A DNA stretch of 49,424 nucleotides, counting the filler, from Bipalium vagum (lineage: Eukaryota), in the NCBI GenBank assembly GCA_037834085.1. It is 2 parts of 2 records of this genome, joined end to end, with 100 filler letters (N's around TTAATTAATTAA, not from the genome) between each part and the next. Parts side by side here need not be neighbours in the genome. Positions count along the whole stretch, not along the records: positions 1 to 30,098 come from JBBMKC010006430.1; 1 more part is not named here. One strand, written 5' to 3'. The notes beneath the pieces are model-generated. The model had not been told where the DNA came from, made no database searches, and saw only the letters and a list, made by a program, of their open reading frames with translations. The first letter of the stretch is position 1. Every line of letters begins with the position of its first letter. Shown piece by piece: positions 6,582-48,782 of this stretch. A program made the position numbers and the translations under genes.

Positions 6582-7739
6582 TTAAACCTTGTTCTTGTTA
6601 TATACTGATTTTGATAGTTCCGTTACTTCATAATCATTCATCTTATTTTTTTGGGTCTCTTTGGTTGAATTAGAAAGATAGACTTCCTTACATCTCATCA
6701 TACATAAATTGTGATAGCGAAAATTTTTCATCCGTGCCATATAAACAAACCAGTTAGTTGCTTCCTGGATGAAAAACAGATGCCATCCGATATCACTAAA
6801 ATTATAACTCAGTCTAACTAATTCCGTAGCTCCTTTTATAGTTTGAAAGTACACTGCAAACATATAAGCAACGGTTTGTGGTAATGATCCTAGAACGAAA
6901 ATGATCGACAGAACAACCAGTAACGTACAGGCAGATATTTCCTTTGTAGCACTTCCAACGTGATTGCATAACTCCTTTCTCAGTTCTTGGGCGTTTTTCA
7001 ATTTTAAAAGAAGAGACAAGTTAACGGTCACAATGGCAACTGTTTGGGCGAAACCACAATTAGAAAACAAAACATGACAAAGTTGGCCAATCATTACCAA
7101 ATTTGAGTTGTCTATCCAACAAATCATACGTTTGTCTATGTTCATATGTAGATTTATAATAATACCAAAAGGTATTACTATTATTCCACTGACAACCGTT
7201 GTAATTGCTATCAAAGTCCAAGCAAATGTTTTACCTTTTTTACTATACTTCAATGGTTTGTAGATGGATAAACATCGATCCACACTTGTCAATAGAAATA
7301 GGTTCACCGCCAATGTTGAAGCGAATGAATAAATATAACGATGAACCTTACAGGCATTGTTACTTTCATTGAAAGTGAAAAAAAATGAATTTCCTTCTGT
7401 CATGTATGGTAAACCTTTAGCTGGAAATATCCATAACCATCCGAAAGATATTAGACAAAAATTATCCGCTAACGCCAGGGCTGATAAATAGATTATCTGC
7501 CTTGTTCTGTATTTCGGTGGATATCTTATCAGGAAAATGTAACATATCAAAAAATTGGACAATATTCCAAATGTCCCAACAAATGGGTATACATATCCCG
7601 AAAGGATCCCTAAAACATGACTTGTTGCACAGCTGGCTAATCTTTGCATATTCTTTTCCGTTCCGTTTGTTTCACAAGGGATTAAAAGATCCCATGGTGT
7701 ATCAATAAAAGGCCATTTATTAAATTTTTCTAAATACAT
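6582..7739 (-). CDS. Intronless class A (rhodopsin-like) orphan GPCR, 385 aa, resembling flatworm-expanded peptide/chemoreceptor-like families
   Basis: Seven hydrophobic segments: TM1 GILSN, TM2 LSALALAD, Cys at the top of TM3, DRC in place of DRY, TM4 Trp and Pro, ECL2 Cys (MICW), TM6 LP, TM7 NWFVY followed by NFR. N-glycosylation sequon NGT in the N-terminus. Confidence 0.93.
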   Translation of the reverse strand: MYLEKFNKWPFIDTPWDLLIPCETNGTEKNMQRLASCATSHVLGILSGYVYPFVGTFGILSNFLICYIFLIRYPPKYRTRQIIYLSALALADNFCLISFGWLWIFPAKGLPYMTEGNSFFFTFNESNNACKVHRYIYSFASTLAVNLFLLTSVDRCLSIYKPLKYSKKGKTFAWTLIAITTVVSGIIVIPFGIIINLHMNIDKRMICWIDNSNLVMIGQLCHVLFSNCGFAQTVAIVTVNLSLLLKLKNAQELRKELCNHVGSATKEISACTLLVVLSIIFVLGSLPQTVAYMFAVYFQTIKGATELVRLSYNFSDIGWHLFFIQEATNWFVYMARMKNFRYHNLCMMRCKEVYLSNSTKETQKNKMNDYEVTELSKSVYNKNKV

Positions 7740-8779
7740 TAAACTGTTATATTAAATTAAATTTATTAATAAGTAACATAAAACTGTATTCAAGAATTTA
7801 TATAAATTTTAAGCCTGTGTTTTCAAGAATAACCAATGATAGTGAATTTTCATAATTTAAAAGACAATATCGTTTTAAATATTTGTTTTAATCGTTCAAG
7901 GAAAAATAATAATTTAAAATTTCTTCTAAAATCCGTTGCTTATTTTAGTTAAATATTAACAAGCAAATATAGACTTCATTTTTCGTTAATTCACTTTTTC
8001 ACAATAAAATAGAATTTTGTGATTGGAACAAATAATATGATTAATTTAATTATGTAATTAAAAATTACGTTATGATTTTTAGCTACTCTTCACCATTCTT
8101 TTTTAAAATAATTTTATTGATGAGGAGATGATAAGCAATCTTTTCTTTACAGAAAAGGTTATTGTTTAAAGGGAATATTTTTTGGAAGATTGTATTTACT
8201 ATTAATAATTATTAATTTATTATTTCTTTCAGTAATTATTTTTTGTAATAGAAAATATTTATTTTTTTAAGTTATTATTATATTAATATAAAAAAATGTT
8301 TAAAATTAAAATAATTAGAAGCAGTTAAAATGATTTTTTTAATTTTTATAGTTTTTTTTTTTTTAAATATTTACTTAATAAAAAAATTTTTAAATTATGT
8401 ATGATTTTATTTTATTTGGATTTTTTTTCATTTTTTTGGTTAAGAAGTAAATTATAAAAGTTTGCGTAGTAATTTAATTTAAAAATAAATTAATAAGATA
8501 TTATATTTCTTTTAATTGGTGTTCTATTTTATTAATTTCATTTTTATCAAAACTCCTTGAGAAGATCTTCTTATGTCAAAATTAAACGACCACAGTGGAT
8601 TAAGTAGAAATTTTATTATGAGAGTAAAGAAATATAAATTTTCTGAATTTTTATAGTTTAGAACATTAGATTCAGATTATTTGAGTTTTTAGTAAGATAT
8701 TTATTTACCACCAAACCGATATGTAGGGATTTTTCTTTATTTTATGAAGATAATTTAACTGAAGTCTTGACTAAAAATA

Positions 8780-13174: not shown

Positions 13175-13769
13175 GGATATGAAATATAGATTATTTTTAT
13201 TTACCTAGTATAAACGTCCTAAAATAATGTTTAGAAATTATAATAAATAAAATGTATTGTTTAAAACAGTTTAACACTAATTCAATTGTATTTGATTTTA
13301 ATTTTAGTAAATTTTAATAAAAAAATTATTAGTATGATTATATTTGAAAAATGATTTTTTAATGTGATGGGTTTGCCAAAGGCACAGACCCTAAAAATCG
13401 TGAATGATAATAATAATGTTAATAAGAAGAATAATAATTTAAAATGTACATATATATATATTTTTGTATATATATTACAAAAATAAATTATTACTATTGT
13501 TAGCTGCAATATTAAAAAAATCAGTCATAATTTTAAAGATACATTTTTGAATGCTCTTTTAAACAATAATACTTAAACAAATTTTCCATTCTTAATAAAA
13601 TAATTTATTGTGCCATTAAATATCAGAATTCATTTCAATAAAAATTATTTTAAAATAAATATTAAAATTAAGTTTACAATTAATTAAAAATTTAAATAAG
13701 GCACAATATAAAAATTTAAAAATTAGAAATCAATTTAAATAATCAAAACTTATTTTTTTTAATATCATT

Positions 13770-14106
13770 TTACTAACTTTATCTCTGCGTAGAAATAAAG
13801 TTAGAATTTATAGACTATTAAGGAAAATAGCCGTCTAAAAGCGTAGAGATTGGTGATCATGGACCAATATATAAAGAGATGGCTCTCCCCAGAAAGCCAC
13901 CCATTAAAAAAGGAAAGATTTTTACAGGATTTGTTGGAAGAAAGTTATTTACTTTGTTTTTACGAAGACGTTTTGCCGAGGATTTTTGCTGAAGAAGATT
14001 TGTAGGAGATTTCAATTTTAGACGAAGATTTTATCCGAAGACGATTTCAATTCCAGTCATTTTATTTCTGTGTTATGAGGATGCAAAAGGATTTAACAAT
14101 GGGGTC
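13770..14106 (+). repeat. Partial LTR (same family as the 23.2, 33.1 and 48.8 kb copies, opposite orientation) upstream of gypsy pol
   Basis: GGAAAATAGCCGTCT..GCGTAGAGATTGGTGATCATGGACCAATATATAAAGAGATGGCT matches the reverse complement of 23880-23940 and 49130-49195. Hairpin CTAACTTTAT/ATAAAGTTAG at 13773-13804. Confidence 0.7.
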
Positions 14107-14189
14107 GTTTTGATCGTTGGAAGAATTATTTTTGATCGTCGGAAGAATTAAAAACGAAAAAGAATTCGTTAAAAAGAGACAATTTTGAG

Positions 14190-15965
14190 GTGAGTAATAG
14201 ATGTGATACAGGATGGGTGAATATGGTCAGCGAAAATCAAAATGCGATAATATCTTACAATGTGATGCAGGGGAGGCCGAGTGTGACAGTAATGATACAA
14301 GAGTTGAGATTGGAATGCTTATTAGATACAGGGGCCAGAATTAATATAATGAGCAGTAATTTAGCTACAAGATTGCGTAATATTCAAATTAGAAAATGCG
14401 AAGACAGATTACGGTGTGCAAATGACAGCGCATTAGAAACTATGGGAAAACTGGCAGTAAATGTCGTAATAGAAGGCAGACAAGCAGAAATTAATTTTAT
14501 TGTGGTAAAAAATGTTACTCCTGAATTGATAGGAGGTGTAGAATTACAACGACAGTTTGGTTTTGTATTAAAGCAAGAAAACTTTATTTCGAAAGTACAG
14601 ATAGACAAAATAGAACACAGAGAAAAACCATTTATTTGCAATATTGAGGCAAAATTTGGGAGACAAATAAACATTGGAGTACGATAACATAGAACATTAA
14701 CAGCATTGAAAATAGAACGAAAGTCACAGATAGGTAAATTTATCCAAGAAAATGAAGACGCCTTTATGGCTGATAAGTGGGACATCGGATGTACTCATTT
14801 AGCTCGGCATAACATAAAAACAACGGGTAATTCTATTAATCTTAAGCCATTTAGACAGCCGATGAATTTAGAAGACAAGATCAATGAAGCAATAACCTTC
14901 ATAAGAATGACATAATTAGGAAATGTCAATCACCGTGGAATACGCCTTTAATATGTGTGTGGAAAAAAGATAAGCAGGAAATCAGGTTATGCTTTGATTT
15001 CCGACAGCTGAATGCAATAACAGAGAGACCAGCTTTCCCAATGCCAAATGTTGATGAAATTATAGATCAATTAAGTGGGTCAAAATATTTTAGTTCAATT
15101 GATTTAGGAAACGCCTATTACCAAGTAGAATTGGATGAAGAGTAAAAAAAAAGACGGCCTTTTCAACAATAACAGGTCAATATTGTTTTAATCGCATCGC
15201 TGCTCCAGGAACGTTTCAAAGGATTATGAATAAAGTAGTTGGTGGTTTGATAGGAACAATTGTTTATCTGGATGATATCTTGGTATTCTCAGACAACATC
15301 GAACAACATTACACAAGGCTAGATAGGGTATTAAAAAAAAATAAAAAAAGCCGGATTGTTAGTGAACCCTGAAAAATGCCAGTCTTTAAAAGAAGAAGTA
15401 AAATTCTTGGGACACGTTATAAATCAAAAAGGGATTAAGACGGATCCACAGAAGATAGAAGCCATTAGATCTTTCAACAAACCAAACTGCATAAAAGGTC
15501 TACGAAGTTTCCTAGGAATATGCAAATATTATAAGAAATTCATCAAGGATTATGCAAGAAAAGCTGGGGCTTTGGAACGCATGTGTGGAATGAAATTGCA
15601 TTTCTGAATTTGAAAAAGGCCCTGATGTCAAGTCCAATACTGTGCTTTCCAGATCTAAGAAAAGACTTTATCGCAGATGGATAATAATGGTAAAGAACGG
15701 GTAGTAGCGTATGGATCTCCCACATTGAATAGCCACGAAAAGGGTTATTGCGTGACCAGAAAAGAGTTACTTGCTATTTACTATTTTTGTAAGCACTTTA
15801 ATCATTTTTTATACGGCAGGAAATTTTTGTTGCGAACAGACCACAAGGCTATTACATTTATGATAAGCACAAAGAAGCCAATCACATCCCAGTTCCAAAC
15901 GTGGATCAATTATTTGAGCAGCTTAGATATTCAATTAGAGTACCGTAAAGGAACAGACCACACCA
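14190..15965 (+). pseudogene. Ty3/gypsy pol remnant: aspartic protease, RT and RNase H; integrase deleted
   Basis: LLDTGA protease motif; SPWNTP, RLCFDFRQLN, SIDLGNAYYQV, VYLDDI (~15262-15280), LRSFLG, KELLAI, LRTDHKAI. Several stops and frameshifts. Confidence 0.93.
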
Positions 15966-16070
15966 GGACACCAACCAGCGGACGAGGTCTCGGAAGTAGA
16001 ATTGTAAAGGAATTGCATGGAAATGGAAGTAAAGAGACTCGGGGCGGTTAAGGGTATGGATGTGAGGTTT

Positions 16071-16110
16071 AAAGGAGGAGGATGTGAGATAAATTGAAAA
16101 TTAGTCGGGT
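16071..16110 (+). promoter_or_regulatory. Polypurine tract and start of the 3' LTR
   Basis: AAAGGAGGAGGA (16071-82) is immediately followed by TGTGAGAT (16083), the same terminus as the LTR at 24200 on the minus strand. Confidence 0.7.
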
Positions 16111-16129
16111 GATATATAATGTATATATA

Positions 16130-20394: not shown

Positions 20395-21322
20395 CATTTT
20401 GATAACTATTTCGCGTCACTACAATACAGGTGAAAAATATTTATCACAATCGATCCGACTGTCAACGAAAAAAACAAATAGAAGTGACGATAAGATATTT
20501 ACAATAAATACTGCAAGCCAATTCAAACCTGCTTCTGATATCAGAGCTGAAATAATTGAAAGGTTATCTTTGCCTATTTCTTTGTCAACCATTCAACGAC
20601 GACTAGGAGAAAAAGGCATTTTTTGATGTATTTATTTAGCGACAAAACCACTTCTTCTTGAGATAATATTAGTAAAAGTTTAGAATTTGCTATTAACTAT
20701 AAAGTTTGGACAATCGGTCAGTGGAAATCTGTGTTATTTACAGATGAATCAAAATTTGAACTTTTTGGAAGTCTTCGTCGATAATTAGTTAGAAGAAAAT
20801 TAATCAAAGATATAAACCCCAGTGTATTTTACCTTACATTAAGACATGGAGGTGGTTTAGTAATGATATGGGGTTGTTTTGCTTATGCTGGAGTTGGTGC
20901 ATTAGTGAAAATTGATGGCATCATGAAGAAAAACCAATATCATCGCATTCTTCAGCAATACGTAATCCTATCCGGAATTGACTTAATTGGCCAAGGTTTC
21001 ACTTTACAAGATGACAACTATTCGAAACACACTTCTAAGCTGTGTTATAATTATTTAATGAAAAAAGAAGAAGATGCAATACTTCAAATTTTAAAGTGAC
21101 CGCGCACAATCGCCAGATTTTTGTCCTGTCGAGTTACTTTGAGATGAGTTTGACCTTCAAGTAAGAAATATGCGAATAAACAGCCAAATAGATATGAAGA
21201 ATTGCTTAGATGATGCTTGGAACAATATAAGTGTAGAAAAACTATATAAACCTCTGGAGAGAATAGCTAAAAGATGCATCGCCGTGATCAAAGTAAAAGG
21301 TGATTACATCAATGAAAATTAA
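20395..21322 (+). mobile_element. Decayed Tc1 (DD34E) transposase
   Basis: STIQRRL, WKSVLFTDESKFELFGS, HGGGLVMIWGCF, QDDNYSKHTS, QSPDFCPVE. Stops and frameshifts present. Confidence 0.9.
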
Positions 21323-23152: not shown

Positions 23153-24200
23153 ACTGAGAACGTAACGTTTGAAGGGTTTACACGTTTTAATTAAAAAAAT
23201 ATTTGATAAAACAAACAAATTTATCCACGTCATTTTACACATTAACTTTTAGGAAATCCCCAAAATGTGTTTATGTTTTCGTATAATTTGTTACTATTAT
23301 ACTAAAATGTAGTAACGTGTGCTCATCTACTCGTGACTCCTCAATTTGTGTAACTCGTTGTGTTCGAAATCCCTCTCAACTCCTTTGAATGTAAAACACC
23401 CTCCACTATACAATATTCGCTCCTTCAATAATCAATTCGAAATATTTAAAATAAAACTTTATTTGTATTAACAATTACAAATATTAAATCGATCACAAAA
23501 AAATGTTATTATGAATAAACTGAAATCTCGCTACCGCTGAATGCGTTTTTAATAATAATGATATTAATCTAATAATAAAATTAAAGCAATGAAAACAAAT
23601 AAATGAAAATGAACAAAATCAGTCTCACCAAGAGCGACAAGGGGTCCCCGGGTCACCCTCTAAGCCCTTCTCAGGTCGCCTAGGGGTTCCAAAACTCGCT
23701 GGGTCCCCTTGCAAAAATCCGACGGCATAACTACGAATAAATCCGGCTGCATAATCAATAATTATTTCGGAATTGACGTACTGAATCTGAATACTTCTGG
23801 ATGCTTCTGGCTACTTCTGGTTACCTCTGGATACTTCTGGCTACTTCTGGTCACTTCTGGTCACTTCTATATATTTCTGAAAAATAGCTGTCTCCTTTTA
23901 TAGGCGTATATCTCTACGCTCAGAGACGGCTATTTTTTCCAATAGCCCTTCACTATCTCCACGCCGAGATAGTCTCACTTCTGTCGAGGCTAATGGATTC
24001 CCGTTTTTAATTATTATTATAAAAAAATTTTTATTATTATTATTATTATTATTATTCAAAAATCCTTATTATTATTATTATTATTATTAATTAAAAATTA
24101 GTATTATTATTAAATTGCCAAATAAAATAATATAATAATTTTTTTATAATTACTACTAATAAAAACCAACAAATTGAAGGAAGAATAAACTCATCTCACA
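23153..24200 (-). repeat. Solo LTR (~1.05 kb), gypsy-associated family
   Basis: Minus strand starts TGTGAGAT at 24200 and contains (AAT)n, TATAAAAGG at ~23894-902 and AATAAA at ~23458-63. The left end TGAGAACGTAAC..GAAGG aligns to 33151. Extensive identity to 48783-49254. No target-site duplication found. Confidence 0.7.
23792..23867. repeat. 10-bp tandem repeat (ACTTCTGGNY) x ~7.5 inside the LTR
   Basis: acttctggat gcttctggct acttctggtt acctctggat acttctggct acttctggtc acttctggtc acttct. Confidence 0.92.
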
Positions 24201-24238
24201 CGATACTTGTATCAGTGGTATTCAATGTCCTGCAGATA

Positions 24239-25000
24239 CGAGGGTCAGTCAAAAAGTAATCATAAAACACATTTATTTTATTTAAAATTTAATTCACATT
24301 TAAGAGTTAATATCACTTTTCAACATAGTCCCCTCCACGTCCAATGCACATACACCACCGCTAAATTAGAGCCTGGAATCTATGAGAGAAGAAATCTTTT
24401 GGCTGACTACGAATCTACTGATGCACTGATTTTTTGTGTTCTACGTCTGAATGAAACTTTCTTCCTCCTAGTGCTTCTTTGAGAGGTTCAAATAGATGGA
24501 AATCACAAGGGGCCATGTCGGGAAAATAAGCAGAATGTGTCAAACATTCAATTTCAATTTAATTTTTTTAGTTCTTTAATTTCATTCACTGTAGCACGGA
24601 TAGTATGTGGTGGAAAATAGGACACCAGGACCAAGCAGTCGACGTCGAATTTTACGGATAGCAGATTTTAGAACATTTTAAATTAGATCAAAATACGATT
24701 CACTTGTTAGTGTAGATCATTTTGATATGTAATGCTCATGAATTGGGCCTTTGTTATCCCAAAAGAGTGTAAGCATCAGTTTATCAACTGATGGTGTAAC
24801 ACGAAAATTCTTCGACAGTGAAGAAAAAGAATGTTTCCACTTTTTGCTTGCCCTTTTGACTCGATTTGGAAATAATGAACTAAACATTCATCGCCAGTAA
24901 CGATGCTATCAAGGAAATCCATGCCCATCCAGCGGACTTTCATCTTGTGAGTAAGCTCTCTTGGAACTCACCTAGCAGACAGTTTTCTATATTTCCGTAG
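24239..25000 (-). mobile_element. Decayed mariner (DD34D), 3' TIR present
   Basis: TA-CGAGGGTCAGTCAAAAAGTAA terminus. Minus-strand IVTGDECLVHY, KLMLTLFWDNKGP and AYFPDMAPCDFHLFEPLKEALGGRKF. Confidence 0.88.
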
Positions 25001-30198: not shown

Positions 30199-31014
30199 CT
30201 TTGCTGAGGACCTCTGAGCCTAAGAGCGAGAGGATTTTTATAATTAATAAATATAATTAATAAAATCATTTTTTGCAAATTGAATAGAATCGGTCAGAAT
30301 TGTCTCATTTATTGTAAATTGATTTGTAATTTGATATCGATTTGAATATACGTATTAAACTAAAAATCGTTTTCTCAGTGAATTTTAATTAAACGAACAC
30401 GCACAAACGCAACCTTCAACCGTTGAGACCTGATAGATATTTAGGCTCCGATCTATAACATCCTTTTATCCATCCAATATCAGGATCTTAACAATTATAT
30501 CATTTTTAGAAAATAATTAGTTGTTCTTTTTTGTTTTAATTAGGTTTGTACTTTTTAATCAATTATTTTCATTATTTAATTATTATTATTATTTTTATTA
30601 TTATTAATAGGGATGCGTCCTTGGCTGACCCAACATCATCAGTATTTAAAATTTTAATTTATCCTGTTTTAATGATTTCATTAAAGAACCGAAACTGGCA
30701 TTGGTAATATTTTAGACTCGTTTATTAATATTATGTTTTATTTTCGTTAATGTTGATTAGAATACAGAAAAAGACATAGCTGATAAAATCTTTTAAAAAT
30801 TAATTTTATTTATTATCTAAATATGCTGAAAACATAAATAATATATAATTATATAATATTTGTGTGCAAAATTCTTAATAAGCCCATATTTTTGGCACAA
30901 AGAACACGGTGCGTGTAATTACGTAAATCATTTGAAATAATTGTAAGCATTTATTGTAATCAGGGTCGGGCAAGCATAATAAAGTAAAAAAAATTTTGTA
31001 TAATGCATTTAACA

Positions 31015-31630
31015 GTGACTCTCATTTATTTTAAAAATGGAAGTATCAACAGAGGTAATCTTAGATATTGTGCGATTAAAAGAAGAGGGTTAATCAAATC
31101 GTCAAAAAGCTACCAAAATTGATGTCAGTCTGTGTGCTGATATTGGCATAAGGCAACGAATAGTTATGTTTAAAAAAATCGTTCTGGTCGACTCAGAAAA
31201 ACATTATCAACGACTGATGGTATGATTAAAAGAATTTTTATTCTTAAAGCAACAGTTAGTAGCTTCTTCCGACGATCTCGACTACCATCTCGTATGTAAA
31301 TCCACGATACGTAGACGTCTCTCAGAAGTAATGGGACTATTTGCATATCAAATATCGTCAAAAAATATTCGAGACTGTATATTATTTTGCGAGGTCCACA
31401 AAACCTGAACAGAATCACCAATGGTTATGTAAAGTGATTAATCAATGATAAGAAAATTTAATCAATAAACAGAAACAAAATCAATTTTTCAATCCACGAT
31501 ATGCCAATCTTAATGTTATGTAGTACCCGCACATAATGCTATGAGGGTTAATGTCATGAAGATCCTGCTAGACGTTAACTTTTAGAAAATGGAAACAATG
31601 AATACTGCCACATATCTAAATATATTATAG
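31015..31630 (+). mobile_element. Highly decayed Tc1-like remnant
   Basis: RSGRLRKTLSTTD, STIRRRLS and ENGNNEYCHI (MN...Y..I-like) fragments. Confidence 0.6.
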
Positions 31631-31799
31631 AAGCAAATCTACCTAACTTCTTTTTAGCAGAATCTTATTGTAAAATAAAAAAATACGAGAAACAATTTTT
31701 TTCTCATATTACTTTAAGTAATACTTTAAAATTATTTAGTAAAATTTTAAAATATTTTTTTATTAATTAAAAATAATGACAACGTTGGAATAGCACCTT

Positions 31800-32393
31800 A
31801 AGTATAAAATGCCCAATATCCAATTCATTTTTTCATCAACGGCAAAAATCTGGCAGACTTTATAAAAAAAATTGCGAACTCGATTTTATTTCAATATTGT
31901 TGACAAACCATTTACCTTTAAGGAAGTGCTGCAAAGATCGAAAAAGATAACAATCTGATTCCAAGATGTCAGGACTATAAGCTGGATGAGGCAATACTTT
32001 ATAGCCAAACTCACAGATCTTTTGTTGAGTAACTTTGGAGGTTTGCGACCTACCATTACTGTGAAGAATAGTACTACCATCATCGGTCTTCGAATATTTC
32101 AATTTATAAGTATTGTTCCAGTTCTTGACTATTTATTAGTATATTTCTTTTTAACTTTCAAGAAATAAAATTTCATTATGTATTGCATTTCTTCTCTATT
32201 TATGTCCATTTCTAAAGATGAATAAAATTTTATTAATTAATCAAAATTCTTACTTTCTAAAGATATTTGGATGCTAGGATTATAATAAATTAAAAGATGA
32301 TATATTAAAACAAAATTAATTTCAATCAAACTCCATAAAGAAAATTTTCACCGTATATTAAGAAAATCGGCTGTAACTTTTTAAACTACCCAA
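31800..32393 (-). mobile_element. Deleted mariner remnant
   Basis: ILHSNGRSQ..YKVLPHPAYSPDILESDCYLFRSLQHFLKGKWF; TIR-like TA-TTGGGTAGTTTAAAAAGTTACAGCCGATTTT at the right end. Confidence 0.85.
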
Positions 32394-33130
32394 TATTAAA
32401 ATCTTCTACGATATAAATAAATGATTGTAGATTTTTGGCTTTTTATATATTTACACCGAGTCTCGCTTTTTTATCACTCTTTCTTTACTTCTCCAATTTC
32501 AGTTTGGTTGATCTTTCCATCATCTCTCTCCATATTTGACAAGCTGTAACCTGCTCTTCACAATCTTCAAAAGCTTTCATGTGTCCACATGATAAAAGGA
32601 TCATTTGAATAATAGACAATAGTCCAGGTGCACCGATCAGGATAGATAGATTGTAAATACTAAACTATGGTATCATACTTACTTCTTAACATTAGTTATA
32701 CACTTCATGCTACTTTATTCACTTTCCATAGCAATTCTCTAATTTGATCACATAGCATTATCTTCCACAGATCTTAGGTATTTACACGAATGTTACTATT
32801 ATACCTTGAAAGTACCTTTCACTCGTATATCAACAACTCCTCACTTTAATGTCTTGCCTTCGTAATTTTATTGTCGCTGCACAAAGTTAAACTCGATTTG
32901 AATGAAAACTCCCATAATAATACTTTATCCGCAACCTAATTGAGTCAAAACAGTCAGGATAAAACTTTATTGAATAACGCAAAAACAATGAAGAAGAAGT
33001 CAGCATTTATTTTAATATACATCTTCTTTCTTCATCATTCATTGTTATTTTTTAAATTTTCATCGAGTTGTGTTTTATTGGAATCTTGTCAGTCGTCTGT
33101 TTATGTTCGTCTTTCATCGGCTCATCATTT

Positions 33131-33148
33131 CACCAGTCTTCGGCGCGA
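33131..33148 (-). promoter_or_regulatory. Primer-binding-site-like sequence adjoining the LTR 3' end
   Basis: Minus strand ...TTTCTCACA followed directly by TCGCGCCGAAGACTGG, one change from a TGGCGCC-type PBS start. Confidence 0.5.
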
Positions 33149-34277
33149 TGTGAGAAATTAACATGAAGGAAATTTACTTAATTACGCCCTTCATCGGCTG
33201 CGCAGGTTTTCGTTCCCTAATTCATCATACAAAAACCACAAACCAACTTGCATCAACAAACACTTGACCTTATCTGACTTTAGAGGTTGTATTTCCTAAT
33301 CCCCTCTCCCACATCATCCTTTCGTATATTGCGAGAAGAAACCCCTATGCTTTAACTCAAACAAACAAAACTATATCACAGAAAAATAAAATAAAGACTG
33401 AAATTAGTTCTCGGATTACACTCGTCGTAAAATCATAATCAAAATCGTCAAAGGTTTAAAATCAATAATCGAAATTGTCTCAGAATCAATACGTTCAGTT
33501 ATCTGAAAATCAAAGAAAAAAAAACAAATAATTCAAAATCAAAAATTCAAAATGAGTAAAATGAAGTTTCTATTATTCAAAAAATAAAGAAAATAAAACA
33601 AAATTAAAGATACTTTCACCAGGAGCGACAAAGGGATCCCATTTTCAGGTTGCCTGGGAATTCCCAAACGCGCTGGGTCTCCTTTTAAATCCTGTAGCAT
33701 ATTTGTTGAACTAAAAATCATTACTGATGCGGCTCCTTGGCAATGAATCCTTTTCTTAAAAGTCTTGAATATGTTTTCCACTTCCAAAGAATATAACACT
33801 ATTAGAATTCACTGTAATAATTTTCTAGGCGGCTTTCTGGGAATAGAAGTCTATTTATATAGTCGTAGAGATTAGTCTACGATCACCAATAGCCATTAAT
33901 CAAACTCTATTTCCAAGCCGAGATAGAGCCCGATTGCAACCTGCAGTCAACACTAAAAATAATCCATGAGCCTAATATATCAAAATCTCTACGGCAAGAT
34001 TTTGATATATGGCTATTCGCGAAAATATTTTTTTTAAAAAAATTTTTATTATTATTATAAATTCTAGAACCTAACATGGCTTATATTTTCGATTCATTTT
34101 CGGATTATATTATAATAACCACAAATTCTTTCTCTAACCCTTGGTTCTTGAAATATTCGCATCATCCATTTCAATTTTTTTGAAAATTAATGATTTCTAC
34201 TCATTTTCGGTATTTTCTTATTGAATATATATATATTGAATATATATATCTAATCTAATACATCGATCATTATCACA
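33149..34277 (-). repeat. Diverged LTR copy (~1.13 kb), probable 5' LTR
   Basis: TGTGA..TCTCACA termini; shared blocks GAGCGACAAAGGG..CAGGTTGCCT..CGCTGGGTC, GTCTACGATCACCAAT and GCCGAGATAG; TATAAATAG on the minus strand; adjacent PBS-like site. Confidence 0.65.
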
Positions 34278-35476
34278 GTCTATACAAGTTTTCTTACGAT
34301 TAATATTTTTCGTTGTTTAACGGTGCGCTCTAGATGTCTCAGAAAAGCTGTAATTATGTATTCAGTTTGAATTACGAAATGAGTCAAAAGAATTTTATAA
34401 CTCTTTTCAACAGCTACTAAATTTTTTATCTCCATATTGGAAGAAATTTTAGTCTTATACCAATGCAAGCATTTTTCTGTCAATTTTTTTAAACCCAATT
34501 TTTGGTTTATGCAGGTAGATCCAGGGATCGTGGAAGACCTTTTCAAAGTTGACAGTCATCTTGGAATGCGTATTCAGGACAAAACCTACTCAATGTTCTC
34601 AATCCCACGTATTTCTATTAATTTTCTGAAGTTCTATGATTTCTAACAAAGAAAGATGTCATTTGAAGGTTCATTTTTAAATGTAGTTTGGATCAATAAG
34701 TAACGTTTCCAACTTAGAATTTAACAGTTCCAGTATCCTTGCTTTTGGTTTCTAAAATACAAAAATTATTTCTTATATATTTTCATGCATTCAGCCATTA
34801 TGTTATGATTTATATTAAAATAATTTTTTTTAATTTATTGATTAATGTGTAACAAGAATCTTTGTTAATGAAGACTAATATTAGTGATGCTTTCAAAGAT
34901 AAAATTAAACTACTGTACGAAACAAAAATGTAATATACATTTTAAACACATAAGTCTTCAAGTATCTATGGTATGCAGATTGTTTAAAATAAATCCTGTT
35001 TATCAACCAAAATATTCTTTTTATTAACATAATTTTAAATTACGCACATATAATTTGTTAATTATCAAGTTTAATCTTAAATTAAATTATTCAACCTATA
35101 TATTATTGTTATTTATCAATTCTTTTAACAATAAATTAAATTCAAAATCTTTAATTTAATAAAATAAATATTTAATAATAACTATGTAATTATAAATTTT
35201 TTATAAAGTAATTTTTTAATATTTTATTTTTATTAATAATTTGTAATTAAGAACATATTTATGTATCTCTTGTTTTAATAAGTTTAATAAAGTTTATGAT
35301 CTCTAAACAACATGATTTTAAATTTTTTCAATATATATTAATGTGTATATAATAATATTGAATCTAAATTATTTGTTCACGAATTATGAATAATAACTTT
35401 AAACGGATTGCAATTTATAATTTTTAATTTTTACATATTAAAATATTCTTTAAATATTTTTAGTTGACAATTTAAA

Positions 35477-38400
35477 ATGTCTAAAGATCCTTCAAAGTTA
35501 GATCCATTTCGAGTAAAGAATGAGCTGAAATTAAAAAAGATGAAAAAATCTCAAGGTTCTTCTCACTACAAACCAAAGGCTCCGACTGAACTAACTCCAT
35601 TGTCGTCATTTAAAGGTAGAGTAATACTCTCAGGTATGCAGAAGTTCTATCTAATAAAAAACATTCCAGACAGTCCATCATCGGAACACAATGATCTTTT
35701 TATCAGTAAAATGCAACAATGCTGTGTGGTTTTTGATTTCATGGATCCCATGAGTGATTTGAAGAGCAAGGAGATCAAACGGGCCTGCTTAAATGAGCTC
35801 GTGGAATTCATCTCCATAACACGAGGTGTTTTGAATGAAGGCACTTATCAGGAAATCGTTCGAATGGTTAGTTCAAGAAAACCGAAAAATCGTTTTTATT
35901 GACACTTCACAGATTGCCTGTAATATTTTTCGAAATTTACCTCCAACAGACAACGTAGATTTCGACCCCGAAGAAGACGAACCAGTTTTAGAGGCCTCGT
36001 GGCCCCACTTACAAGTAATTTTCTCTCGCATTGATTTTTCTTTCTATCGTGATATTATATTCCTTGTAGATCGTTTACGAATTCTTTCTCCGCGTGTTAG
36101 AATCTCAGGATTTCCAACCGAGCACTGCAAAGAAATTCATCGATCAAAAATTCGTATTGCAGGTGAGATATTTCCCCTCGATTTTCATTGGTTAATTCGT
36201 GTCAATATTTATATCAATTGATTGTGCCATTTTTGTTTGTTAATTATTTATTGATTTTTTTAAAAAAAATTCTGATATCAGAAAATGGCAAAGGATTAAT
36301 ATGGTATTTTTTTGGAAAATTGATTGTTTCCTTTTTAAAACGTGTTTGTATTAATGAGGAAGAGGGTGGGGCGTGGTGCGAAACTTTTCTCATTGTTTCT
36401 TTCGACATTGAACAACGCCGTGCATTTATCGACAGCAAATGATGATAAAAATTTCCAGGCGCTCTATAAATATATATGAATTTACATGGAGACTGCATTT
36501 TCTCATTTACACTTGTCGTTGGTCGCCCTGTGTTGTGTATGCCATATGTGTGTCTGTCTCCATGTGTATGAGAGCGGGTGTATGCAAATCATGTCTCTTT
36601 CTCCAGTCGTCGTTGCCTTTTTTACCTTATTTTCTCCCAGTTTTGCCTATATATATTTGATTCCAAGAATCCGGTTTTCGATCAAGTTGCGTTTTTGAGA
36701 CTCATACTCGTCACCCTGCCTTTTCCTTATTGCTCAAAAGAAAGAGCGCACGAGAGGGAGAGAGAGCAATAGTTTCTCTCGTTTGGACATTTTTACTATT
36801 CCCTCAACCCCTCTCACCAAAAAATTGATCAATGCCAATTAATGTCTGTTTGGAGGACATAAAAAGTAAAAACAAAATACTTTGTTTGGTCATTGGAATG
36901 TGAAAAATGTGATAATTTATTTTTCGGTTACTTTTTGGATGGTTCAATGCCAAAAGCGGCCGCGCGTTGAGAATGTAAATTTGAGAATTTGGCATTCTCT
37001 TTTCCATTGAAACGGGTCAAATAAATTGCCTGTGTGTGCTTGTTAATCAATTGACATGCCATGCGTGCTTGGGGGCCCTTTCTGGGAAGGGTGATCGAGA
37101 ATGGGTAAGGGGTTGTAGTGATTCCCTCTTGGTTTGTGTCACACTACGAAGAAAAAGAAAGAAGGCGACTGTATCTGTCAAGACACCGCCACTTACATCG
37201 CTCAAAAATCTGTCAATTGATTTCCGAATGAAAGAATCAATTGTCAAAAATATCTGCTGTCGTCTCTTTCTCTCTCATTTATGTGCAATTATTAATTTTA
37301 TTGATCGAAAATTAGATGTGTAGTGTCAAATTCTTTCTCCAGTTTGATAATATTGACAAAAATAATTTTGTTTAACTTGTCCCGATAATTGATTTTTCGT
37401 TGATCTGATTTCGGTTCAAATTTTCGTTTCTTGATTATTTTACCGAAAAAATTCCACTTGTCGACTTTCTCACATTTCGATTGATTGATTCATTGACGGA
37501 GATAATTATTGATTTCAGCTGCTTGAGCTATTCGATAGCGAAGATATCAGAGAGCGCGATTTTCTGAAAACTGTGCTACACAGAATTTACGGAAAATTTC
37601 TTGGACTGCGAGCATTTATTCGTCGCCAAATCAATAACATTTTTCTAAGGTAATTCCACTTACCTTTCTAAGTATTTGATAAAATTTAATTATTATTTTA
37701 TAATAGATGTTGTTTTTTCGTAACCCTTCAGTTAAGCGGCGTAAAGTTGACACCAGTTTCTTGGACGTAAAATAAATAAGATAATAAGTGATTTGAATAA
37801 AAGCTGTATGTAAAAAAGTAAAAATATACAGTTCAAAGCTTCAACTGGTGAATAAAAATAAAAACCGAAAATGTCGAACTGTGGCGTTCCCGCCGCTTAT
37901 CCGAAGTAAAATATTTCTTATTATTTTACGCCCTTTACTGAAGGATTACCGTTTTCTTAAGTATTAATAATCGTATTAATTATGTAATTCATATGTGTGA
38001 GTATAGTTGTTTTTCTCTGATAAGATCTTGATTTTTGAAATTATCGATTTTTCCTTTTGTTGTTCTAAGTGAAAAGAATGGTTTTTATTCTATTTTTATA
38101 AAAATTATTAATCAATGGTTCCAAGCAGATTTTCAGATAAATATGAAAAATCAATTTTGTTCTATTTATTAACCGCGACAACTAAAACATTTATACCACA
38201 AAACTTGTTGATTTTCCTGAATTCTAACGAAAAATGGATTTATTGTGGTCTATCCGTTTCATTTTGTATGGAAAGGAAAAAATTGATATCCAAAAAAACA
38301 CGTGTCACATGTTTATCAATTTAAATGAATTTCTTTTTTCTTTCTAGATTTATTTACGAGGCGGAACGATTTAATGGAGTGGGAGAAATGCTGGAAATAC

Positions 38401-41400
38401 TTGGCAGTATTATCAACGGGTTCGCGTTGCCCCTGAAAGCAGAACATAAACAGTTTTTAATCAAAGTCCTCATACCGCTGCATAAAACAAAAACGTTAAA
38501 CTTGTTTCATGCTCAAGTATGATAAAATGCCATCTTCTTTTGTTTTATTTTTTTTCATCACGTAACAGTTGGCGTATTGTGTGGTTCAGTTTCTGGAAAA
38601 GGATCCCACTCTCACCGATTATGTGGTGCGTGGACTACTGAAATTTTGGCCGAAAACGTCGTCACCAAAAGAAGTAATGTTTCTCAACGAAATGGAGGAA
38701 ATATTGGACGTGCTGGAACCTGCACAATTTCAGAAAATTATGGTTGTACTTTTCAAACAAATTGCTCGATGTGTCTCCAGTTCACATTTTCAGGTATTCG
38801 TCACCATAGGTTTTTACTGTTTTATCTTGCTTAAATCGATTTTTATAATTTTATAGCACCTAAATTATTTTGAAAGATTATTTTTTATAATATTTTTCAA
38901 CTTTTCCATCGCTAATCAATAACCTCACTTCTCTTTTTGAGAATTTATAATAACGATTTGTGTCGTTTTACTGATTTTAACACTTAACGAGAGAATTAAT
39001 TTTTCTCACTGGTTTTTTGTGCACCCTATGTCTCTAGACCATTCCTTGCGCTGCGAATTATTTTTACTTGTTTTAATATAATATCACCTCAGCACTTTTC
39101 GTTTTGGAATTGATCTCAATTGGTAGTAACATTGTGGTAATTACATTGGTAGGAGGTGGAGGCTCTCAGTCATGCACGACTGAATCGTTAAGACAGATTT
39201 TATTATTTGGACACCCATTTTTCATTTGGAGTCGTACACAATAATTAAATCGATTATGTGAACCCCAATCTCACGTAAAATGTGCTTTTGTCCGAAAAAT
39301 ATTTTACGGATTTTTTAACTGTTCAAAAAGTTTTCTGTTATAAAAGCTGAGGTCTTACTATGAGGTTTCCAATGAATCTGAAGCAGATTCATTTAAGATA
39401 TCGATTATCTTTAACAGAAAAGGATGGAAGCAGCAATTCTAAATTATTAAAATCTGAAGTTTATTGTTTTTGTTCAAAAATCAATTACCAGGATCAGAAG
39501 AAAATATCTGAAACAAAAAGAATGAGGGAATTCCTAATCGTTTTTTCTCTATCCTCTCAAAATGGAAATTTTTCATTTTTTAATTGATTTTGTTAGAAAA
39601 TAAGGATCAGAGAAGAGAATCATCGTTTTTATTACTACCGATTTAATCTAGACAATGGTTTTTGTTGACGATTGTCATCTTATTTCGGACTTTGACTTAC
39701 ATCCTCGCTATATTTTCATACAGTGTTCGATTTAACATCGATTTTACAAATTTTAAATTTGTTCAATGTACAAAGCCAAGGCTTACATTGCGTGTGTCGA
39801 ATTGAAAATTGCATTATAATATAAATTAAATTGTATTATATTGCGTTTTTCTATCGTTGATTATCTATCTTAAAATATCTTTTTTGTTTATCGATTTTCT
39901 AATTTAATAATCATTAAATATGATCGAAGAATATTAGTTCAATGTCGTTTTGGATGATCATTTTGATTAAAAAATATCAATACTTAATTTTGACATTGAA
40001 TGTGTTCGCTCAGAAAGCCTAATCATGATTGTATCACACTCCTATACTTCTCCATCTCTCTTTATCAATGTAAACGTTATTTAAAAATAGAAAAGATTCC
40101 TATCGAATTTTATTTAAGGTAATGAAATATTAAAATTTTCAATTAAAAAATCGATAAATTATCGTTCATTCTTTTAATTGATATGAATTGTATCCAGTGT
40201 TTGAGCCATAAAATCTTTTGTAAGAGTAATTCAAGTCAATATTCATTGTGAAAAATCGATTCTTTTCACCTCTTTTGTCCTCTAAATTATTTAAGTAAAG
40301 AAAACTATTTCAGAAAAATATTATTGTTCATCGAACCTTTTAATCATCTGTAGCTATTATGTATATATATTTGGCATTAATTTCAACGCTTGTCTGTAAA
40401 TGCCACCGTTATTGATTTACCGAACTCTAAAAGTCGCTTAAGACATCCATATTATTCTTACATCACACAACTATAACACCGGTCACATTGATCGCTAAAA
40501 GCGTCACACAGTCAACTATTGGTTCTGAGCAACTGTCTGAATTCGTCGCTTAATCAATATTCAATCTTACTTTCCAGGTTGCTGAACGAGCTCTTTACTA
40601 TTGGAATAATGAATATATCGTGTCGCTGATTGAGGAAAACAACGAAACGCTGATGCCAATCTTATTTCCTGCATTTTATCGAATATCGAGGGAGCACTGG
40701 AACCAGTCCATTGTCAATCTGGTTTACAACGTTATGAAGACGTTGATGGATATGAATAACAAATTGTTTGACGAGCTCAACAATACTTACAAAGTAGACC
40801 GTCAGAGGTATACTTTTTTTACTTTGAAAAACTTTTTAAATTTTATAATGATTTAAATTTTTTTACCTTTTTGACAAAATAAAATTATTTTTTAATATTA
40901 GCTTTATTTCCTCTCTTTTTTAAAGAAAAAAAATTAAAATATCGGGTTTTTTTGATTAAAAATTATTTTCTGGCGAAAACCAAATCTTTTTTATTGAAAT
41001 CTAACTTCGTATTTTAATAAATCTAAAATTGATTTTTATGTAATGATTAAAGTTAATTAATTATTATATCACACTAGTACTAATTATTGATTCTTTATCT
41101 ATTAAAATATGACGCGAAATAATCTGTAACGATCAATAAAATTTCCTGGTTTATTTTCCGAAGTTATTAATAACTGGTTTTGAATATCATTCGATTCAAT
41201 CATTTGTGTTTTTCGAAAAAACATTATTGATTAAGTTTGATTAAAAAATTAGTTCTTTTTATTAAAAAACTATTTTGCCAAACAAAATTCGCAACTGCTC
41301 GTTAGATATTTCTGATTGTGGTGGTTGAAAGAGGTTTCTTTAAAACATAAAAATCAATATTATTATTATTATTCTTGTTTACTTTTGATCAATTATCAAC

Positions 41401-42121
41401 AAAATCATTATTGCACTCTATTATCACATCATTAAATTGTTTTTTGAAAATTTTCTACCAAAAGCAATAGTAATGATAATAATAATTACACAGAAAAGTG
41501 TCAGTCAATCACTATCCAAATGTGAAGAGAATATTTAATTATTTTGAGTCAGTGTGCGAGATTAATTATTGATTGAACACACAATGAGAATGATAATCTT
41601 TTTCAAATTCAAACAATAAAATTAATTGATTTTTTTATTAATGTTAATATTATTGATTATTAGTGCTACTGAAAAATTGTTATTTCTTTTTTTTGACTCA
41701 TCATTCTGTTGATAAAATTTTCTATTTTTATAAAAAAATATGTAAAAATAAATCAATAATTCTCCTTTTTTTCTGTTAATCGATAATATTCGTTTTGGAC
41801 ATGTCGCATTCTCAACCTGGGGCTTTTTAATCTCTCTATTTATTTTATCCAATTGTTTATCGATAATATAAACAACATTTGTGACATCATACACAAAAAA
41901 TTGATGAGTATTGTGCACAATCGATTTTCTGTTTCTGTTTATTTATTTTCTGTTGTTTTAGTCTGTTTTCTGATTGTTTGTTGTCTCCTTTTTGCAGAGA
42001 AAAGAAACGGGAGAAGGACCGCGAGGAATTGTGGAAACAATTGGAAGACATTAAACTAAAGAATCAGTTGGAAAACGGAGATGCCGACAGCAAGGAGAAG
42101 GTTGCTGCCGCTAATCAATGA
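35477..42121 (+). CDS. PPP2R5: Protein phosphatase 2A regulatory subunit B' (B56), alpha/epsilon (widerborst)-like, 469 aa, 9 exons
   Basis: Exons 35477-35615, 35670-35866, 35913-36014, 36070-36162, 37519-37649, 38348-38516, 38569-38793, 40578-40807, 41998-42121. All GT-AG, phase-consistent, 1410 nt in total. Motifs [67 protein letters not shown]. Confidence 0.97.
37724..37945. mobile_element. piggyBac-like MITE in PP2A intron 5
   Basis: TIRs CCCTTCAGTTAAGCGGCGTAAA / TTTACGCCCTTTACTGAAGGA with flanks GTAA and TTAC (TTAA-like). An extra internal inverted copy lies at ~37890-37906. Confidence 0.65.
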
Positions 42122-43229
42122 CGATGATTTGATAGTTATAATCACATTATTTTTATAAATTAGCTGAGTGATGTGTGACACTGATAATCAATAATAATAA
42201 TAAATCAATAATAACAAATAATAATAATAATGGTAATTACCTTTATAAGAAATACTAATTGATAATGACTCCTTGTTTAAAAGTGTTTATTGTGTCAACT
42301 TGAAGATGATGTGGACAGTGTTTTTAATTAATATTCATCAGAGGAACAATTTTGTATAGATTTGTATTGATTTATCAAATACATACAGACCTGCTTTTGT
42401 CTTATTTGTGGCATCTTTTTGTCTATTCCCGAAGCATTTGTTTTGGACTTTCAGTTAATATTTTGGAATATTAAATTTCTATAATCAATATTCTTCCCAC
42501 TGTCTTGTTTAATTATTTAAATTGGAAAATAGTAATTTCAAAAGCAGCTAATAATTTGATATAATTAATTCTAATCCGTCAAGACCTAAAAATGGACCAC
42601 ATAGGGTTCAGTTGTGTTTGTTAAAAATTATTGGTTAAGTCAAGGTAAAAGTGATTTTTTATCAAATTAGAACAAGATTTTTAAAAAAAATGATTTTGAT
42701 TGTAATTTGGCTAAGTACGTGCCTGTTGCTCAAAATTCGACGTTATTTAAGTACTGAAGAGTTGAACTATCGCCCTTTAATTTTATTATTAAAAATGTAA
42801 TCTTCTGACACCTAAATCGAAATAATTAAGAAAAACTAGTTTTATTTTTAAGACTTAATGCTTTAGATTACTTTACGGAAAAGAGGATATTCTGTTGAAA
42901 TGGGCAGAAGTTCTACGGATAAAATAAATAGTTTACTTGACAATACCAAATTGGCAAGACAAAGTGGAAACTGCCAATTAACAGATTCAAATTGGTAACT
43001 GAGCAAATTTCCTTTATACGAGTTCTATTATTTTCTTAATCTTCATGATTATCTCAACCATCATATATTGTGTCATCACAGAATGCAAAAGGATATTGTT
43101 TTTATACGTTATGGAAATACTGAAGTAAATTTATTCAAATCCTTTTTTATTGTTGTCTCATAAAACTTGATCACTAAAATATGAAATCAAAACAAATATT
43201 TATCATGACATTTACAACATGAATCTTCA

Positions 43230-44010
43230 AAATATAATCCACTGTGCTTAATTCTTTTATACCACTCTTTGAGCTTTGATAAAAAAAATCTGTGATACCG
43301 ATTTTCACTTCCACATACTGAAAAATTTTCTCCTGCAGATAATGAGCCATGCAATGGAAGAGGTAATAATCCGACGTTGCAAGGTCCGGACTATATATTG
43401 GATGTGGTATTACCTCAATCATTTCTAGTTCCCTTGTTTTATTTTTGGTTTGATAATCATATGGACCAGCAATGTCCTGCTGTAACAATCTACGTTCCTC
43501 ATTTATGATAGTTGGGTATTTGGCCGCAAGGATTGCATAAATACGTTGCAACCGTTCAACATAAGACTAGTCTGTTATTGTGTAATAGGCCTTCGTAATT
43601 CCAAAAAACGCATAAAAACCTTGCGTTCAAATCGTTGGCGCTTGGCAACCTGTATGGGAGTCTAATTAGGTCTTAATCACTGATTTCGCAAGTCTTGATT
43701 CTGGAACTACACGCATTTTTCATCGCAAGTAACGATGGCTTTTAGAAATCGCTCATGATTTGGGTAGAGGAGTGGTTCACATATTTGCAAACGTTCGTCT
43801 GCTTGTTTGTGAGTCAGGTTAATCGGTGCGTCTCAGGTTAATCTTTGCGTCTCCTATTTCTCTTACCATGAGACAGATGTTTGTACTAAAGATTTCGGAA
43901 TTTAAACTTCTTCTGAAACTGATACAGAAATTCTTGTCCAAAGAAAGCATAATTAATTGGGAATCAACTGTTGATGGTCTTCTAGAATGTGAAATTATAT
44001 TTTGATAGTT
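43230..44010 (-). mobile_element. Decayed mariner transposase
   Basis: RRPSTVD, IVTCDEKCV, EVIPHPIYSPDLATSDYYLF on the minus strand. Confidence 0.88.
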
Positions 44011-44379
44011 GCGAATAGTTTTTGAAACAGACTGTACATATGTTTTGATCCACCATGTAAAAATACACACAATATAAGATTGTGAATTATATTAGAAGTT
44101 TTATGATTTTAACTATTTTAATTTAGATATATTCTGACGTTAGGTTTATATTATATAATATTTCAGTAAAAATTATTACAATCAACTAGTGTATAATTGC
44201 TCAATTAAATTTTTTTTAATTTTCAGAGTATTTAAATATGTAATATATTTTTAGATTTTCATTTATTTATTAAGTAAAAACTATATTTACAACATTTAAC
44301 TGATTGTTACCTATATATTTTTATAATTTTAGAAATTTTTTATACAATATGAAATATATTAGGGAATAAGTTATTCAAA

Positions 44380-45033
44380 AAAAAGAATAATGGTTGGTCT
44401 ATTAAGAAAGGATTGCAGCAATATATGAGACACAAAGTATATTTCAGCAAGACAGAGCTCCATACTTTAAATCAAGATTGGTGTCTTCATTTTTGGACAA
44501 GACAAAAATCTGCGTACTCAGTGATTAGCCGGCTCAGTCTCCAGATCTGAGTATAATTGAGTAGTTGTGGCTGACCTAAAAGCTATGGTTGCGACGTGTA
44601 GGCCAACAAATATTGAGGCACCGTGGAAGAATTCGAAGGAGCAGTAAACGATGATTCCAATAACTAAAATAAAAAATATTTATGAAAGCATGCCAAGAAG
44701 GATCCCAGAGGTAATAAAAAATAAAGGAAGGAATACAAGGTACTAATTTTTCATGAGGTTGGCTGTCTATTAAAATAGGTTTATGGACATTTGAAATGTA
44801 CATAAAAGATGTTTTAGTCTTCTATTCAAAATGACTTAAAATTGGTGTTTATGAAAAATTCAGTTTTCTGGTTTTACAAAATTTTTATTTTGAAAGTATT
44901 TTATTGGAAACATGTACTTCAACATATTCTCTGATATAGTTAAATAAAGATTGGATCAAAGTATTTATAGCTAGATATTTCAATCATTTAATGAAAATTA
45001 TAGGGTTGGGTCCAAACATATGGACGACATTGC
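44380..45033 (+). mobile_element. 3' part of a decayed Tc1 element
   Basis: YIFQQDRAPY and PAQSPDLSIIE*LW; Tc1-like terminus GTCCAAACATATGGACGACATTG. Confidence 0.75.
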
Positions 45034-46889: not shown

Positions 46890-47310
46890 AATTAGAGAAC
46901 AAAAATCAAGATGTGTTCTACCACTTATACCAATTTTAGATGCAGTCTTAGCAGGATTATATGCTGCAGGTGAATTAACTAGAGTTTTTGCCACAGTTGT
47001 TCAAAGAGGTAAAAGAATCATCAAAATCAGATTTAGAAAAACAGAGTTTGGAAAGTGAGATTGAAAAACTAAAATCTAAATTAGTAACAACTGGCAGAGA
47101 TTTATACCTTGACCCACCTAAAAGAAAAGGTTTGTATTTTGACTTGAGGTAGGAATTTAAGGTGCAATAAATTTGTCAAAAAGATGCAAATTAAAATTTT
47201 AAGTTCGATTATTACATAGTCCAATATCAAACTAATAAGAAATACATCAAGTCACCGTTACAAACAAGTTTTTAAAAAGTCAAATGCAATATTTAATTAA
47301 TATCAATCGT
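46890..47310 (+). mobile_element. Probable Polinton/Maverick remnant: pX-like small virion protein pseudogene
   Basis: VLPLIPILDAVLAGLYAAGELTRVFATVV, then after a frameshift a coiled-coil and TGRDLYLDPPKRKGLYFD. Resembles the GGFLPLIP..GL.A.G / G.GLYL.P pattern I recall for Polinton proteins. Confidence 0.55.
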
Positions 47311-47318
47311 CCGAAAAG

Positions 47319-48299: not shown

Positions 48300-48782
48300 T
48301 AAATAAAATTCATAATTACAAAGATTTTCTAATTGAGACTACATCTCCAGTCACTGTAAATACTTTTACGTTGAGAAAGATCTTTTAACGTCAACTGTTA
48401 CAAGTTAGTAAAGCACACATATTTGTAGCCACATAAACAGCATCGGTGTTTTTGGCTAAGCTCTGCTACAACTTCTTTTTTTAATATCTCTTAGTGCTTC
48501 CTTCACAATCATCAAAATGATCCAATCCGCATATTGCTTCTCCAAATAAGTAAGAGCTGGTGTTAGAAAATAGTACTCATGTGCAGCTAGAAGTTCATCT
48601 TGTAATTATTTTTCAGATGTTAAGTTTTTGGCCTTTTCATAGCTGAAAAATTATTTTGCAAAGAAATATAAAAACGTATAGCATCTGTTTAAATATCTGT
48701 CCGTTAAAGGGTGCAACTAATATATTTAAACCATGCCTATTCCGTCTATATTTATTTTTTTATATTTTTATATTTATTAATA

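Follow-up and report, generated by a model that had tools for sequence, protein, structure and literature searches.

The window, 49,424 nt of the planarian Bipalium vagum genome, joins two stretches (1–30098 and 30199–49424, ~28–29% G+C) of a fragmented 441-Mb assembly. It carries a 389-aa ORF with the look of a seven-transmembrane receptor (6582–7751, minus strand) and, at 35468–40856 on the plus strand, exons resembling the PP2A B56 regulatory subunit, both of which we take, by eye, to be host genes. Fragments that by eye resemble Tc1/mariner transposases lie at 2148–2465, 20785–21099, 31860–32132, 43174–43566 and 47357–48079. The feature under study is a set of four mutually homologous repeats, copies A–D, whose cores all align with further copies in the genome (Table 1); copies A and D share 66% identity over 731 nt (E 1.6e-72). 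These repeats are the long terminal repeats (LTRs) of a high-copy Ty3/gypsy element. A sequence-only reading had located all four homologues and assigned them to such an element; the assignment is borne out by termini, target duplications, primer site and a linked gypsy pol, and the homology stands as well, while the limits of copies A, B and C had to be redrawn.

Table 1. Features of the hairpin LTR copies and of neighboring or linked elements. Positions count along the window unless a locus is named.
Feature	Position	Strand	Description
Copy A	23289–24171	−	Solo LTR, TGTT…AACA, 883 bp
Target duplication of copy A	23285–23288, 24172–24175		AATT, 4 bp, both flanks
H1, copy A	23952–23973	−	8-bp stem, GGCGTG loop; outer arm varies by subfamily
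S3 outer stem, copy A	23881–23936	−	Arms 23923–23936 and 23881–23894; encloses H2 and the TATA-like box
H2 remnant, copy A	23904–23919	−	Left after a 20-nt deletion
Intact H2, copy D	49154–49185		Example; 13-bp stem in other copies
TATA-like box, copy A	23896–23902	−	TATAAAAG in 48/138 copies, TATATAAA in 46/138
R stem-loop, copy A	23637–23712	−	Irregular, conserved; GNRA cap at 23669–23672; R presumed
Splice-donor-like GGTGAG, copy A	23624–23629	−	Directly after R stem-loop; exact in 98/147 copies; putative donor
AATAAA poly(A)-signal-like motif, copy A	23458–23463	−	42/57 copies scored; median 172 nt to LTR end
Copy B	32791–34076	−	LTR of another subfamily; flanks do not match as target duplication
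Hairpins of copy B	H0 33977–34008; H1 33905; R stem-loop ~33614–33689		Part of H2/S3 deleted
Foreign insert in copy B	32994–33422	−	~430-bp fragment of an unrelated nested repeat, outside the LTR family
Copy C	13365–14106	+	5′ part of an LTR, third subfamily; start approximate; cut right before R stem-loop
Hairpins of copy C	H1 13775–13802; S3/H2/TATA 13825–13884		
Copy D	48782–49424	−	LTR cut at its 3′ end and by contig end
Hairpins of copy D	H0 49273–49292; H1 49208; R stem-loop 48930–49022		H2 with a G-C variant pair
Protease–RT–RNase H fragment, broken	14136–15963	+	Different gypsy family, not parent of the hairpin LTR
Polypurine tract and first ~30 nt of an LTR	16072–16113	+	Different, tRNA-bearing LTR family
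ISG20-like ORF	L201:3717–5003	+	Candidate exonuclease by sequence
ISG20-like ORF	L260:1063–2163	−	Candidate exonuclease by sequence

The family, first taken to number four copies, has at least 508 in the genome by exact 18-mer count (control 0). Used as DNA queries, three of the copies drew 2026, 1602 and 1062 first-look candidates, and 40 per search were scored. Homology among the copies starts at TGTT, and the termini read TGTT…AACA instead of the TGTGAGA…TCTCACA proposed earlier; short inverted LTR termini of the TGTTRNR…AACA type are described in a passage of PMC3601003. Both ends were found in 27 of the 98 copies having both core regions, giving LTR lengths of 638–1220 bp (n = 27). Among 24 of these 27, those adjoining the primer site or an internal junction being left out, an exact 4-bp target duplication flanks 13 copies (chance 0.02) and one with at most one mismatch 17; 5-bp duplications were absent. 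Homology of copy A with the other copies stops at 23289, at a common end reading …TAGTAACA; its shared ends and 4-bp duplications therefore define it as a solo LTR. The end at 24200 assigned to it previously falls between the true start of this LTR and a further repeat at 24236–24420, which matches locus L368 at 78%. No contig among those examined held two whole LTRs.

Three landmarks that the sequence-only reading had linked to the family belong to other repeats. The polypurine tract at 16071 leads into a different, tRNA-bearing LTR family: a purine tract plus TGTG as at 16072 occurs at 19 places, and 15 of the 18 others run on into tRNA-like sequence (ARAGORN called no tRNA in 10 of those loci). 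The primer-binding-like site with TGTGAGA at 33148–33149 lies inside the repeat nested in copy B, a segment that matches no other copy of the LTR family and represents a separate repeat with 317 first-look candidates; in L336–L344, copies of this repeat mostly end at the same T-run. The gypsy pol at 14.2–16 kb, proposed as the family's own, has RT and RNase H only 31–37% identical to those of the parent, groups with its own family at 87–97% DNA identity up to 15963, and has the hairpin LTR nearby as one 78-nt match in 19 pol-family loci. The internal end, purine tract and LTR start of the tRNA-bearing family (15963–16113, plus strand; L366–L383) adjoin a gypsy RNase H fragment here and lie ~630 nt from related pol in L363, so the two families might be partners.

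The parent element was reconstructed from sequences that adjoin the LTR elsewhere in the genome. Right after the LTR end, 27 among 100 listed matches read AT and TGG (counted by eye), and the sequence continues as a tRNA-Trp-type primer site, the motif TGGTGA(G/C)CCCG being as given in PMC2582038. A host tRNA-Trp gene was not found in the genome, and the sole candidate is no tRNA. Beyond the primer site come a repetitive leader (in L016:600–820, minus strand, ~110-bp repeats with the primer-site core copied inside them) and gag with CCHC knuckles. The domain order, read from broken copies, is zf-CCHC, PF24664 fusion glycoprotein (E about 1e-15 to 1e-19), protease, RT, RNase H and integrase zinc finger; a last ORF after pol resembles the ISG20 3′–5′ exonuclease (E 1.4e-5 in one copy, 0.19 in a second, partial copy) and has no Pfam match. 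At the other end, a conserved internal terminus precedes TGTT in 16 of 30 loci and, slightly altered, in 4 more, with H1 downstream in 6 of the 13 internal–3′ LTR junctions that have enough sequence. In loci L215–L244 a 7-bp hairpin is conserved ~20 nt ahead of the 3′ LTR, accompanied by a purine run of just 5 nt; no common long polypurine tract precedes this LTR among the loci compared. Elements flanked by two such repeats do exist: L201 and L205 carry partial LTRs in direct orientation at both ends of internally deleted elements, and the two LTR ends of L205 differ at 4 of 72 positions (by eye). Each parent copy seen is interrupted by stops, frameshifts or deletions, and overlaps between the copies suggest a length of ~14 kb with an internal region of ~12 kb. 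The parent is thus a Ty3/gypsy element with the order gag, env-like gene, pol and ISG20-like ORF, by its gene order of the flatworm GAG-ENV-POL/Burro type. With 256 occurrences in the genome, the Trp-type primer motif also follows at least two other LTR ends (L175–L194, L203, L208–L213), and L209, with another LTR end, also has an env-like gene, so several related families exist.

The GAG-ENV-POL arrangement has been reported for flatworms (PMC13524379) and for Burro (PMC6431247). In the passages compared, the parent has in common with Smed_errantivirus_1–6 and Burro/GYPSM1 an env-like glycoprotein between gag and protease, a CCHC gag and the gypsy pol order (PMC13524379, PMC6431247). Its inferred ~14 kb is close to the 14.5–18 kb windows of the Smed elements, and its env fragments resemble, by eye, the Smed_errantivirus_1 row of supplement file 3 (PMC13524379), although LTR structure and tRNA primer are absent from the passages and supplement rows of that source that were compared. 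In Burro proper the internal region reaches 25 kb and encodes MATH, BIR, BCL2 and ankyrin domains, according to part of PMC6431247; the parent is about half the size of Burro and has the ISG20-like ORF after pol. The inferred ~12-kb internal region does not fit Burro proper, nor do the 21 parent-type fragments scanned, in which BIR, BCL2, MATH and ankyrin domains were all absent. Members of the CsRn1 clade (CsRn1, PwRn1, AgCR; PMC2582038, in part) likewise have a tRNA-Trp primer site, a 4-bp target duplication and flatworm hosts, but they are described there with a CHCC gag, short LTRs (381 bp in PwRn1) and no env, in contrast to the CCHC knuckles, 0.7–1.2-kb LTRs and env-like gene of the parent; its zf-CCHC and env-like matches do not fit this clade. 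An RT protein search recovered unnamed or distant gypsy RTs only (best 67%) and no named planarian element among the best 120 of 1981 matches. The element type is therefore a known one; we found no published description of a structured planarian gypsy LTR, the LTRs of Grohme 2018, Repbase and Dfam lying outside the comparison.

The U3 region of this LTR is packed with inverted repeats that are predicted to fold. Alignment of 140 rows, reduced to 138 copies after two reverse-strand duplicates were dropped, shows a core made of H1, a short alternative hairpin, and S3 enclosing H2 and the TATA-like box, with one or two further hairpins upstream; the two most upstream hairpins are deleted in copy A. 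The inverted repeats that had been quoted for H1 in copies A, B and D, for the S3 arms of copy A and for H2 of copy D are where they were placed, and the nested repeats do enclose the box, a putative promoter element. These hairpins exceed chance: mean folding z is −4.5 in U3, with z < −2 in 28 of 33 sampled copies and the two strands alike, against 0.5 and 2 of 30 in a U5 control. The segment 23860–24010 scores −4.9, and another copy, which holds near-perfect stems of up to 27 bp, reaches −10 over 221 nt. The short GCGTA/TACGC pairing, regarded earlier as a diverged equivalent of a 12-bp stem, is what a 20-nt deletion left of the 13-bp H2 stem. Across 87 copies, 88% of cells in the H2/S3 stems are paired, compared with 35–43% in slid controls, but the covariation score of 0.121 does not significantly exceed the 0.116 of shuffled alignments (matched in 59/500 shuffles). 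The arms around the TATA box are thus conserved in sequence rather than covarying, and covariation does not show the selection that had been claimed for them.

Covariation was found at other stems than those the sequence-only reading had emphasized, namely in the upstream hairpins between subfamilies and in an R stem-loop that it had missed. Nine groups, holding 74 of 98 copies, differ by 39% on average, yet their inner arms and loops are nearly invariant. The H1 stem has 8, 13, 14 or 16 bp, its arms differ from group to group, and one version contains two tandem G·U pairs; the H1 arm-swap matrix separates only some groups. For the hairpins upstream of H1, a strict finder overlooked many decayed stems, and loop-anchored counts used in its place gave 131 C-GNCGTN-G loops in 98 of 138 copies; at least five of six pairs form in 88/131 of these versus 231/919 swapped arms. 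A common GNCGTN loop is carried on different arms, and its pairing persists between subfamilies. RNAalifold, proposed earlier as a check, returned little structure for the U3 groups and no consensus structure for the R alignment, probably because the copies are decayed. One S3 arm (23923–23948) can pair upstream as a short hairpin or downstream as the long stem around the TATA box, possibly a two-state fold; one subfamily is without the upstream option.

A promoter set within nested hairpins had been called unusual; U3 and R are indeed unusually structured, but maize Sireviruses provide a precedent (PMC4728375, in part). Their LTR palindromes appear to be the closest one for a hairpin-rich U3: Ji and Opie likewise place a GC-rich array of U3 inverted repeats, with predicted hairpins, before a conserved TATA box, and structure is kept while sequence differs between families (passages of PMC4728375). 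The same source describes Sireviruses as plant Copia elements that have a single palindrome unit, its arms better conserved than its center; the planarian LTR, in contrast, combines a shared loop, changing outer arms, a TATA box inside a stem and a separate R stem-loop. Such palindromes invite a DNA-level account, in which a CG-centered motif, present in four to five copies upstream of the TATA box, forms palindromic enhancer sites while template switching lengthens and homogenizes the arms, with no selection on folding. The near invariance of inner arms and loops between groups 39% apart points this way, as do a CGT-N-G-R-GAT-like word that recurs in direct and inverted form, the interpretation of Sirevirus U3 palindromes as cis-regulators in a passage of PMC4728375, and the capacity of template switching to create and repair stems, as outlined in part of 10.1101/2021.04.15.439925. 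We nevertheless judge this account unlikely: copying yields Watson–Crick pairs, not G·U states fixed on one strand; loop inversions were absent (0/138 and 0/125); and the irregular, bulged R stem-loop, with its GNRA loop and distant compensatory pairs, is left unexplained. If only DNA palindromes are involved, the LTR would be a convergent animal counterpart of the Sirevirus U3 array and a caution that LTR hairpins can appear covarying without RNA-level selection.

The R stem-loop is a conserved 75-nt element ~200–300 nt after the TATA-like box (median 270 nt from the box to GGTGAG). In an unbiased column-pair scan of R over 147 copies, the top pair (C-G 69, T-A 57) extends a helix; most top column pairs in such scans are subfamily markers, not base pairs. 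With 80 copies, the covariation score is 0.180 versus 0.139 shuffled (0/500; slid controls ≤ 0.087) and 91 cells versus 41 are changed on both sides (0/500), two measures that relatedness inflates and that relatedness alone can lift above the shuffle control. Pairs with a double change, 14 versus 11 shuffled (50/500), do not exceed the shuffles, and the signal comes from just three pairs. A GNRA loop caps the stem in 134 of 140 copies, switching between GAGA and GAAA. Folding z is only about −1.5; single-copy folds recover the R marker pairs in 44–83 of 133 copies, with the antisense strand similar. The R bulge and the 3′ tail are complementary, but a pseudoknot joining them is unsupported, with double changes at 0 of 4 pairs. 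Rfam gave no match at gathering score in the window and two weak, unrelated matches in six loci, and no known structured RNA or ribozyme (retrozyme hammerhead, HDV, twister, TAR, RRE) was matched.

HIV TAR and the HTLV Rex-response element are structured RNA elements of retroviral R. The R stem-loop differs from such elements in having no sequence or Rfam match and no predicted refolding by U3. The latter bears on a switch of the foamy-virus kind, in which U1 on GGTGAG would suppress the poly(A) signal of the 5′ LTR and U3 would refold R in the 3′ LTR. The donor-like motif is conserved from one subfamily to another and precedes AATAAA by a median of 188 nt. Foamy virus has the same arrangement, with structured RNA in R and a donor-like motif ahead of the poly(A) signal (passages of PMC3694450). 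The predicted accessibility of GGTGAG is nevertheless 0.29 with and 0.27 without U3, shifts by more than 0.15 in only 1 of 35 copies, and is likewise unchanged by U3 at AATAAA, which makes such a switch very improbable. Spliced or polyadenylated reads were likewise not seen.

Inherited mismatches on the sense strand bear on the choice between RNA and DNA. Group-level states over 52 pairs comprise seven G·U, one A·C, seven other mismatches and four extra Watson–Crick types, so that clear compensatory events are few; the 7:1 bias itself is modest (p ~0.04–0.06 by hand), and four of the seven come from three-copy groups. Among copies, H2 pair 85–108 is G·T in 79, A-T in 26, G-C in 9 and A·C in 2, pair 76–123 is T·G in 42 and C·A in 2, and pair 13–88 is G·T in 28 and A·C in 1; R pair 47–60, with T·G 18 versus C·A 16, is a counter-example. 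Decay after insertion is strand-symmetric in the conserved stem columns (C>T 6.9–7.7%, G>A 7.6–8.0%), so the inherited wobble states are informative, and the U3 stems bear no ADAR signature (A>G 2.9%, T>C 3.4%).

DNA secondary structure, as promoter cruciforms or as hairpins in single-stranded plus-strand DNA during reverse transcription, would draw on the long near-perfect stems that adjoin very A+T-rich sequence. In sense-strand single-stranded DNA, too, G·T would be less disfavored than A·C. A cruciform requires both strands to pair, and a G·T on one strand is an A·C on the other; GNRA loops, moreover, are a feature of RNA. We consider this explanation as remote as the foamy-like switch.

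On balance we lean, with slightly better than even confidence, toward selection on sense-strand RNA folding as what has kept the hairpins, likely as docking sites for proteins acting on the full-length genomic RNA. This reading is favored because decay is strand-symmetric beneath an inherited G·U excess and because an ADAR signature, loop inversion and refolding are all absent. With a presumed transcription start ~30 nt downstream of the TATA-like box, the U3 hairpins would be present as RNA only at the 3′ end of the genomic transcript, and four to five stem-loops there would display a related GNCGUN loop. The GNRA-capped R stem-loop would appear at both transcript ends, in place of a TAR or Rex-response element. 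The most likely job would be 3′-end formation, export or packaging, through a bound protein that we infer. The inner arms around the TATA box do not vary, probably because they double as promoter sequence in the DNA.

In a more specific form, held only tentatively and as a minority possibility, GNCGUN loops on freely evolving stems and a TAR/Rex-like GNRA stem-loop would constitute a multivalent 3′ RNA signal read by an element or host protein. RNA control in the style of complex retroviruses would then exist outside vertebrate retroviruses, in an envelope-carrying animal gypsy element. If the folds are functional, the hundreds of diverged copies would form a covariation data set for RNA signals of invertebrate envelope elements, and the hairpins would be candidates for triggering small-RNA silencing or for being targeted by it; PIWI-mediated control of elements of this kind has an effect on cell differentiation in a planarian, according to a passage of PMC8532177. 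Four of 24 sequencing runs were compared with the LTR family: three match only A+T-rich bits, and one has the family as contigs.
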